DNA of 64,000 bases from contig CAMCPL010000008.1 of assembly GCA_945876745.1 (NCBI GenBank), positions 8,757 through 72,756 on the forward strand, read 5' to 3'. Source of the stretch: an uncultured Clostridia bacterium. GTDB taxonomy: Bacteria > Bacillota > Clostridia > Oscillospirales > Acutalibacteraceae. This document shows, in pieces, positions 62,963 through 64,000 of the stretch. Both the position numbers and the translations under genes were made by a program. The notes under the pieces were generated by a model, which was given only the letters and a program-made list of their open reading frames with translations, had not been told where the DNA came from and did no database searches. Every line of letters begins with the position of its first letter. Within the stretch, counting starts at the first letter, position 1.

Positions 62963-63622
62963 ATGCAAAAAAAGGCAAAAACATATTTTTTTGAGCAACC
63001 TCCGGTTATTAAGGCAAGTGCCGGAGTAGTCGGCAAAAAAGAGGGTGAGGGTCCGCTTCGTGATGATTTTGACCAAATTTTCGAGGATACGACTATGGGG
63101 CAGGACAGCTTTGAGCTTGCCGAGTCGGCTATGCTTCACGATGCGATTATCCGTGCACTTTCAAAGGCGAATACAAGCCCGTCGGATGTGGATTTTATTC
63201 TGTGCGGCGATTTGCTTGACCAATGCGTAGGCTCGTGCTTTGCTCTCAAGGATTTGGAAATTCCGTTTGTCGGTATGTACGGCGCCTGCTCGACTATGGC
63301 GCTCACGCTTTGTAATGCTTCAATGCTTGTCGAGGCGGGTGCAAAGCGTTGCGTTGCGGCGGCTTCGAGCCATTTTGCGTCAAGCGAAAGACAGTTCAGA
63401 TTTCCGCTTGAATACGGCGGACAACGCCCGCCCACAGCACAATGGACAGTAACGGGAGCAGGTGCGGCAGTTGTTGAAAATGCACAAATTTCGACGGATA
63501 ATTCGGCAAATCTGCCCAAAATCAAGGCAGTTCATATCGGTACAATAACCGACCTCGGCATCAAGGACGCCAATAATATGGGTGCCGCCATGGCACCTGT
63601 TAATGCTACAATTAGACTATAA
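62963..63622 (+). pseudogene. spoVAD: Stage V sporulation protein AD, 5' part only (interrupted)
   Basis: VGKKEGEGPL; GDLL.Q; GMYGACSTM; SSHF.SSERQFRFPLEYGGQRPPTAQWTVTGAG; D.NNMGAAMAP then divergence and stop at 219 aa (full-length proteins are roughly 330-340 aa). Confidence 0.85.
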
Positions 63623-63740
63623 GATATATCAGACTTCGAGAAATGGCGATAACCACGCCGAGATTATTTTGCTGCTTATATCTTATTCAAAGCGATATGC
63701 TTTTCTACACATAAATATTTAATGGAGGTTTATAAAAATT

Positions 63741-63782
63741 AAACGACTGCAAGAGAAAACAATAAGTTTCTTGCAGTCGTTT
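63741..63782. terminator. Bidirectional terminator
   Basis: AAACGACTGCAAGA / TCTTGCAGTCGTTT 14-bp stem. Confidence 0.8.
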
Positions 63783-63790
63783 GGTTTTTG

Positions 63791-64000
63791 TTAGGTCAGA
63801 TCCGAGAGGTCGGGAATATCTATAATGGGAAGCTTGATATCGTCATTACTTAAAAACATCAGCATATAAATCGGATAATAGACATAATTACCGTTAATCT
63901 CGACATTATAATTTGTAAAAACGAATGCTTCATCTATTGAATAATTTGAAATTTCCAATACATTACTTAGTGCAGAATGGCGTTTATAATCCTTTCCGCT
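63791..64000 (-). CDS. C-terminal end (partial) of AAA ATPase / DUF4143 protein; absent from ORF track
   Basis: Manual translation SGKDYKRHSALSNVL..YSIDEAFVF..NV....YYPIYMLMFL..stop, resembling the PD-(D/E)xK-like tail of AAA_14-DUF4143 proteins. Confidence 0.7.
   Translation of the reverse strand, partial: SGKDYKRHSALSNVLEISNYSIDEAFVFTNYNVEINGNYVYYPIYMLMFLSNDDIKLPIIDIPDLSDLT

Follow-up and report, generated by a model that had tools for sequence, protein, structure and literature searches.

Programmed excision of an inserted DNA element is known to rebuild several sporulation genes. The published interrupted genes are sigK, spsM, spoVFB, spoVR, gerE, yabG, cotJC and spoIIID (PMC4191935, PMC5595907, PMC10747680, bioRxiv 10.1101/2022.02.25.481979), and those whose expression is described are mother-cell genes (PMC4191935, PMC5595907, PMC10747680). 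The known elements are skin in sigK (SpoIVCA; in C. difficile with a directionality factor), SPbeta in spsM (SprA/SprB), vfbin in spoVFB, vrin in spoVR, gin in gerE and yin in yabG. Here we describe the end of a 64,000-nucleotide stretch of DNA from an uncultured Clostridia bacterium (the window; positions 8757-72756 of contig CAMCPL010000008.1, called C8 below), where the gene spoVAD is split by what appears to be a recombinase-bearing element of a different family. The forespore needs SpoVAD to take up dipicolinate. An earlier note on this DNA had pointed out that a forespore target would set such an element apart from the described ones, and this holds: the described targets are mother-cell genes, and spoVAD is sigma-G dependent in C. 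difficile (PMC3738446). Full-text literature searches for spoVAD together with an intervening element, a recombinase or a prophage returned no paper describing a split spoVAD, and a wider search yielded none either. The assembly that contains the window (GCA_945876745.1, G000 in our numbering) has 18 contigs and 1.93 Mb, and is 98.6% complete.

Near the end of the window, an unbroken frame on the forward strand, 62963-63598, covers codons 1-212 of spoVAD, the 5' two-thirds of the gene, and ends NNMGAAMAP. The translated frame matches Pfam PF07451 over positions 3-206 of 329 (E 3.5e-81), NCBIfam TIGR02845 over positions 2-205 of 327, and PRK08304 over positions 6-211 of 337. As a third of the protein is missing, its NCBIfam scores of 255-274 bits do not reach the 402-442 required of a full-length match; judged by these profiles, the stump is an N-terminal fragment of a true spoVAD and not a full-length member of the family. 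At the Pro codon of NMGAAMAP the frame departs from the family, runs on through seven element-encoded codons (VNATIRL) and stops at the TAA at 63620-63622, the codons and the stop together occupying 63599-63622. This break is inside the most conserved peptide of SpoVAD, whose counterpart in the solved structure from Bacillus (chain 3LMA_A) is residues 200-213. The G+C content falls from 0.45-0.50 before the junction to 0.30-0.35 directly after it. Between the stump and a convergent gene lies a 25-bp hairpin at 63732-63791 (-30.7 kcal/mol, z = -8.4, none of 200 shuffles as stable) with an A-run on its 5' side and a U-run on its 3' side, predicted from the RNA fold to be a bidirectional intrinsic terminator. 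The convergent gene, on the reverse strand, has its 3' end at 63791 and runs through 64000 to C8:73902 beyond the window; its 451-residue product carries AAA_14 (PF13173, 3e-24) and DUF4143 (PF13635, 5.4e-29) domains. Every detail that the earlier note had read from this region, i.e. a lesion-free spoVAD frame up to NNMGAAMAP, VNATIRL and a stop, AT-rich DNA, a terminator and a convergent AAA/DUF4143 gene, was confirmed.

For comparison we used 18 other genomes of the genus of Eubacterium coprostanoligenes (congeners), a genus that GTDB places in Acutalibacteraceae, Oscillospirales. In four out of 18 (G003, G005, G007 and G016), spoVAD is split at the same profile position, the 5' parts ending at 203-207 and the 3' parts starting at 198-202. 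The two parts lie on separate contigs and each is free of stops. The 5' parts end in the 10-bp core ATGGCACCTG, followed by T(T/A)(A/G)(A/G)TG(C/G)TA.A.T.AGAC(C/T)ATAA, and the 3' parts have TAGTCTA(A/C)(T/C)CTTGACA upstream and then ATGGCACCTG. The window has the same core at 63590-63599, and the core together with the following 22 nt matches the half-site of the congener elements at the same CC. In junction alignments of G000 and the four congeners against intact genes, the core is common to the left junction (attL) here, to the left and right junctions (attL and attR) of the congeners and to the intact target site (attB). The core guessed in the earlier note, about GCACCTG, lies inside it.

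The two arms of the element, P and P', are inverted repeats centred on this CC, the first two bases of the Pro codon (63596-63597). The P' half-site in the window, TGTTAATGCTACAATTAGACTA at 63598-63619 on the forward strand, has the arm found in G003, G005 and G007 and includes an extended -10-like TGC-TACAAT at 63604-63612. The outer P' sequence, ATTAGACTA, forms an inverted repeat with TAGTCTAAT of the attR arms. In three distant elements (G069, G246 and G273) the identity between attL and attR is down to CCCG or CCCCCG around the same CC. We infer that CC is the crossover dinucleotide, as it is the only sequence common to all attL/attR pairs of these three and the dyad centre of the attP (circular form) that we reconstructed. 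The tail of the stump differs among strains (VNAIIRL, VNATIGLQSDMLF...), and the preceding 212 residues are conserved. On these comparisons, the end of the window is an attL recombinase junction, not a random truncation, and a site-specific element of the serine-recombinase family has very probably integrated at a fixed dinucleotide of spoVAD; we regard this basic claim as secure. The split by inserted DNA that the earlier note proposed is upheld as a recombination junction whose core and P' arm match those of the congeners.

When the halves are joined in silico at the CC, the result is stop-free and aligns to residues 1-333 of intact SpoVAD in all seven genomes that have both. The intact gene that the earlier note expected from such a rejoining was recovered in these relatives, at about 330 residues and aligned end to end; for this assembly the expectation stopped at the lack of a 3' third. 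The expected rejoined attB reads …GCCATGGCACC joined to TGC…, i.e. TGC(G/T)GC, and the expected attP is the P arm joined to TGTTAATGCTACAAT. In the reconstructed attP of G003, G005 and G007, the circular joint is spanned by TTGACA-17-TAGAAT or TATACT, the pattern of a sigma-70-type promoter. G000 holds only the -10 half (TACAAT), and with a P-arm TTGACA its circular form would give TTGACA-17-TACAAT. The predicted joint promoter is directed away from the recombinase. A separate case is the metagenome contig L066 (1-260), where an attR arm runs in frame into the 5' part of a gene for a YmdB-like metallophosphoesterase and the core is ATCATCACCTG, not ATGGCACCTG.

The whole element is found on one contig in G069 (9 kb), G246 (16 kb) and G273 (38 kb). 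In all three, a serine recombinase of 561-572 residues is located at the right edge of the element and reads towards the 3' part of spoVAD, and related recombinases are present in G005 and G016. This spoVAD-targeting clade has a mutual identity of 36-82% and the domains Resolvase, Recombinase, Zn_ribbon_recom and DUF4368, and each of its recombinases is preceded by a small DUF6870 gene (E 5e-13 to 2e-19). The other contents vary: TnpV adjoins attL in G003, G005 and G007, G005 also has a MobA/VirD2 relaxase and NikA, and the cargo of the family is very diverse, with restriction-modification systems, ABC transporters and polysaccharide clusters. The regions upstream of five DUF6870 genes were scanned for sigma-F, -G, -E and -K motifs; the three matches were isolated, and their positions did not agree.

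G000 itself has only two serine recombinases, 23-28% identical to the spoVAD-targeting clade. One of them, with 492 residues (C8:80232-81710; PF00239 8e-31, PF07508 5.5e-18, PF13408 1.7e-12, and no DUF4368), lies 199 nt from the end of C8. We rejected it as the integrase for the spoVAD site, given an identity of 23-27% to the clade and homologues in nine genomes of the family that are not beside spoVAD. Exact look-up in public assemblies returned no record of it. The earlier note had expected a recombinase nearby: a large serine recombinase is indeed found within the family's elements in relatives, but the one at the contig end here belongs to an unrelated clade.

To place this junction among other genomes, we sampled 401 genomes of the order, 367 of them with spoVAD, and called a split when a fragment ended at profile position 203-212 or started at 198-202. 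Split spoVAD was found in about 25 of the 366 other spoVAD-bearing genomes (~7%), which belong to 11 families. A search with a 131-residue 3' fragment as query gave 2930 clusters of such fragments among metagenomic open reading frames, and 68 of the best 120 of these 2930 clusters are exactly 131 residues long and start MAP, with the Met of the core. It appears that one recombinase family targets a single spoVAD codon throughout this order of gut Clostridia. Where spoVAD is called as truncated in a metagenome-assembled genome, the call probably reflects a split gene and not the loss of sporulation.

Other arrangements were seen as well. In G031, 80 kb separate the two spoVAD halves, which have the same orientation (C2:77035-157980); capsule-synthesis, two-component regulator, potassium-uptake-like and other chromosomal-looking genes lie between them, and no recombinase is near the 3' half. 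In three other species (L061, L081 and L089), attR adjoins a 10-kb cluster for cell-wall polysaccharide or teichoic acid that contains glycosyltransferase, Dlt-like, choline kinase and transporter genes. No recombinase is present within 10 kb upstream in these three, and in L089 recombinase genes are found downstream of spoVAD instead.

The species was sampled by exact look-ups of RlmH and of close stump variants in independent metagenome assemblies. Eleven further public contigs have rlmH, truncated spoVAD, AAA/DUF4143 and TraX in the same order, and all 12 public copies of the species carry the same split. A sister lineage shows this gene order as well, and the closest protein clusters are truncated, at 219 residues (205 members) and at 227-238 residues (52 members); no full-length cluster representative is more than 84% identical. 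Between strains, the AAA gene of the island has pS ~0.10 and pN ~0.005, and the host gene murA has pS 0.06-0.12. Since the divergence of the AAA gene is as deep as that of murA, the insertion predates the divergence of the strains; the island has, by this measure, co-diverged with its host and the split is old in the species.

The 5' part of spoVAD has a pN/pS of 0.07-0.19. The 12 copies represent 6 haplotypes; none contains a stop, and their segregating sites are 24 synonymous and 8 non-synonymous, against a neutral expectation of 77% non-synonymous (binomial p = 5e-10). These values indicate that the 5' part of spoVAD is under purifying selection. In the P' arm, substitutions fall at positions that also vary between the functional arms of congeners, and in a deletion variant, deduced from protein tails, about 85 nt next to the P' arm are lost and the arm is kept. 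One 90%-identity cluster (P0121, with 165 members beyond those listed) contains both 219-residue 5' fragments and 131-134-residue 3' fragments, which share only MAP. The presence of 3' fragments in the 219-residue cluster suggests an unseen full-length bridging member, and an intact allele in a close lineage is possible.

Five public fragments were examined as candidates for the species' own 3' half. Four (P0027, P0112, P0241 and P0243) are from other species: their DNA matches that of G000 little or not at all, and Tex is only 74% identical. The fifth (P0045) is on a 1.2-kb contig that is not assignable to a species. Within the assembly, a weak tblastn match of contig C17 to the SpoVAD C-terminus (E 0.66) is an antisense frame of a MATE-type transporter gene and not a remnant.

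Behind the junction, G000 is mostly identical to the left end of the element in G005, without gaps, for 66 nt past the Pro codon (63600-63665, forward strand), after which the match ends abruptly. The original element is therefore reduced here to the half-site and a few dozen bases. In G000 the junction is followed neither by tnpV, which G003, G005 and G007 have, nor by a mobilization gene such as the relaxase of G005. The genes that do follow are AAA_14/DUF4143, TraX, a nitroreductase and a tRNA-Gln(CUG) at C8:76000-76073. No other tRNA of the assembly has this anticodon, and its distance from the spoVAD junction is 3.7 kb. Directly after the 3' end of the tRNA, the sequences of other strains depart from that of G000; the strain-specific DNA starts there, and therefore the intervening DNA has a second hot spot of integration at the tRNA-Gln(CUG). 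The strain-specific part of G000 contains a family-4 glycosyltransferase, a HAD hydrolase, a split gene and then the 492-residue recombinase. By its make-up, the intervening DNA is a mosaic.

The end of C8 has no 21-, 31- or 55-mer link to any other contig, a blind end as expected for unbinned mobile DNA. A walk along the island by way of the HAD protein reached no contig longer than 3.6 kb. Members of the genus share no conserved synteny downstream of spoVAD, and therefore no contig was nominated as the missing flank. The split gene at C8:78853-80115, with reading frames of 94 and 302 residues, is a single 420-residue frame without a Pfam family in four other samples, which means a broken gene in G000 or an error in its sequence. 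In a relative (G010, locus L107), a YmdB-like gene adjoins tRNA-Gln(CUG). Dispersed intergenic repeats of ~50-280 nt with 80-100% identity occur on most contigs of G000 and on related metagenome contigs, and several contig ends of G000 are copies of them.

We lean slightly towards the explanation that spoVAD is still assembled in this species, with its 3' third and the cognate recombinase on DNA missing from the draft; the argument is that the stump is under selection though the split is found in all known copies. The end of the window would then be the attL of an element that is old and has been heavily remodelled, from a family of large serine recombinases that integrates at one CC, in the Pro codon of the invariant SpoVAD motif NMGAAMAP/AA. 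The gene would still be used, and hence a cognate recombinase with Resolvase, Recombinase, Zn-ribbon and DUF4368 domains would have to rebuild it by precise excision, with its DUF6870 partner as the candidate directionality factor. Recombinase, partner and the 3' third of spoVAD would all be on DNA absent from the 18-contig assembly. A further step, which we consider unlikely, is a reversible germ-line switch: DUF6870, made under a forespore sigma factor, would turn the recombinase to excision, spoVAD would be rebuilt and dipicolinate loaded, the circle would stay undiluted in the non-dividing spore, and the recombinase alone would reinsert it at attB after germination. Such a switch would explain the split in every known copy, the selection on the gene and the position of the sole tRNA-Gln(CUG) in the intervening DNA. 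As spoVAD is a forespore gene, excision would touch the heritable genome.

A number of results weigh against continued assembly. The earlier note had looked to the DNA past 64000 for the 3' third of spoVAD, and there is none in the remaining 9.2 kb of C8 or anywhere else in the assembly; nor has the species' own 3' half been found in public contigs, including the five candidates. The 10-bp core is single-copy in the whole assembly, without an attR arm, and neither a cognate recombinase nor a DUF6870 gene is present in it, despite its completeness. In three collections a strict attP pattern had no match, and a relaxed pattern had only promoter-like chance matches without the outer arms. The genome has no match to DpaA_N (dipicolinate synthase A). 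Some Clostridia make dipicolinate by another enzyme. Finally, the 66 nt are all that survives of the original left end, and the flanking DNA, with the sole tRNA-Gln(CUG) and strain-variable islands after it, is as compatible with a rearranged locus as with an excisable element. The main rival, to which we give a small but real chance, draws on most of this: after integration, a deletion or rearrangement would have removed the right part of the element, attR and the spoVAD 3' third, leaving an irreversibly truncated dead-end remnant. The missing 3' third, attR, cognate recombinase and DUF6870, the short left end, the tRNA and islands in the flanking DNA, the lack of an intact allele among cluster representatives above 84% identity and the lack of DpaA_N all favour it. 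However, a dead gene is hard to match with strong purifying selection on the 5' part while split, or with a P' arm that is kept in all strains, even in the variant with a deletion starting just after the arm. Further, spo0A, spoIVA, spoVAC and spoVAE are intact in G000, and the assembly is in 18 contigs, with C8 ending blind within a strain-specific island. Of these genes, spoVAC and spoVAE are located on another contig (C3:73636-75380), divergent around an ABC-ATPase gene and not beside spoVAD.

The remaining alternatives dispense with either development, excision or the junction itself. An ordinary integrative mobilizable element, whose recombinase would recognise a conserved spoVAD sequence by chance, with spoVAD off while the element is resident and rare excision for transfer, is also unlikely. 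It agrees with the TnpV, MobA/VirD2 relaxase and NikA of relatives, with the very diverse cargo, with the predicted sigma-70-type promoter across the circular joint, as for Tn4451, and with the lack of anything consistent in the sporulation sigma-factor motif scan upstream of the DUF6870 genes. However, in this species the mobility genes near attL are lost, every copy is split and the island has co-diverged with the host, yet the gene is under purifying selection, which is not expected of a gene that is merely switched off. Selection on the 5' part without excision would be accounted for if separate N-terminal (212 residues) and C-terminal (131 residues) fragments assembled into a working SpoVAD with no DNA rearrangement. 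The 3' fragments do start at the core Met, gene callers call the 131-residue frames, and in some islands the upstream gene ends 14 nt before the 3' fragment. We nevertheless find a two-piece protein very improbable: the 3' fragment has no visible ribosome-binding site, because TTGACA abuts the ATG, the cut is within the most conserved peptide of the family, and this assembly has no 3' fragment. An assembly chimera or sequencing error that made a false truncation, for which the position of the junction near a contig end of a draft assembly might speak, is refuted. The identical junction is present in 11 independent metagenome assemblies, and dozens of other genomes have a split at this site. 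Mis-assembly, which the earlier note had named as a way for its proposal to fail, is thereby set aside.

Upstream of the stump, a terminator-like hairpin of rlmH at 62930-62956 (forward strand; terminator scan and reading of the sequence) has in its 3' arm the ribosome-binding site of spoVAD, GAGGTG, 6 nt before the ATG. Termination could be coupled here with occlusion of spoVAD translation.

Compared with known systems, the spoVAD element family works like the skin-type elements and looks like the Tn4451-type mobilizable elements, as far as the analogy goes. Like skin and its relatives, it is a large-serine-recombinase element within the frame of a sporulation gene, with a short common core at its junctions and a precise excision that restores the frame, for spoVAD in silico. 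The recombinase at the element edge beside the 3' gene fragment in G069, G246 and G273 is placed as in skin (bioRxiv 10.1101/2022.02.25.481979). Shared too are a small upstream gene as the candidate directionality factor, and cargo that decays while the excision module is kept. However, the targets of the skin-type elements are mother-cell genes, whereas spoVAD is a forespore sigma-G gene (PMC3738446). The spoVAD family differs further in its recombinase with a DUF4368 tail and a DUF6870 partner, and G000 holds attL only.

The mobilizable transposons Tn4451 and Tn4453 (TnpX, TnpV, TnpZ) also have a large serine recombinase and a 2-bp crossover identity. In relatives, TnpV is found at the left end, together with a mobilization module and a predicted joint promoter, TTGACA-17-TAGAAT; according to PMC13023037, which cites Lyras and Rood (2000), the circular joint of Tn4451 creates a promoter. 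Tn4451 crosses over at GA with low target specificity (PMC5704250), whereas the spoVAD family uses CC in one codon of one gene and so departs from the GA, many-target pattern. In addition, the relaxase of G005 is of the MobA/VirD2 type, not MobV, and the joint promoter points away from the recombinase. The G000 copy has lost tnpV and the mobilization genes, and neither a TnpX-like recombinase nor TnpV is found there. The highly specific attB/attP pair, with DUF6870 as candidate directionality factor, is a possible tool for genome engineering.

Active lysogeny and phage regulatory switches offer a third comparison, as an element in a gene is precisely excised, turning the gene on, and is not necessarily lost. 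In contrast, spoVAD is a developmental spore gene, no phage genes are near the junction, and excision from spoVAD is predicted only. The heterocyst elements of cyanobacteria, in nifD, fdxN and hupL, are excised during development (PMC11249958). They too carry recombinases and interrupt genes needed only in the differentiated cell. Programmed excision has so far been known to rebuild only those sporulation genes that belong to the mother cell, whose genome is discarded, and a split spoVAD raises the question whether germ-line DNA is rearranged and then restored, or spores are made in another way. The heterocyst elements are excised in terminally differentiated cells, whereas the forespore is the germ line.

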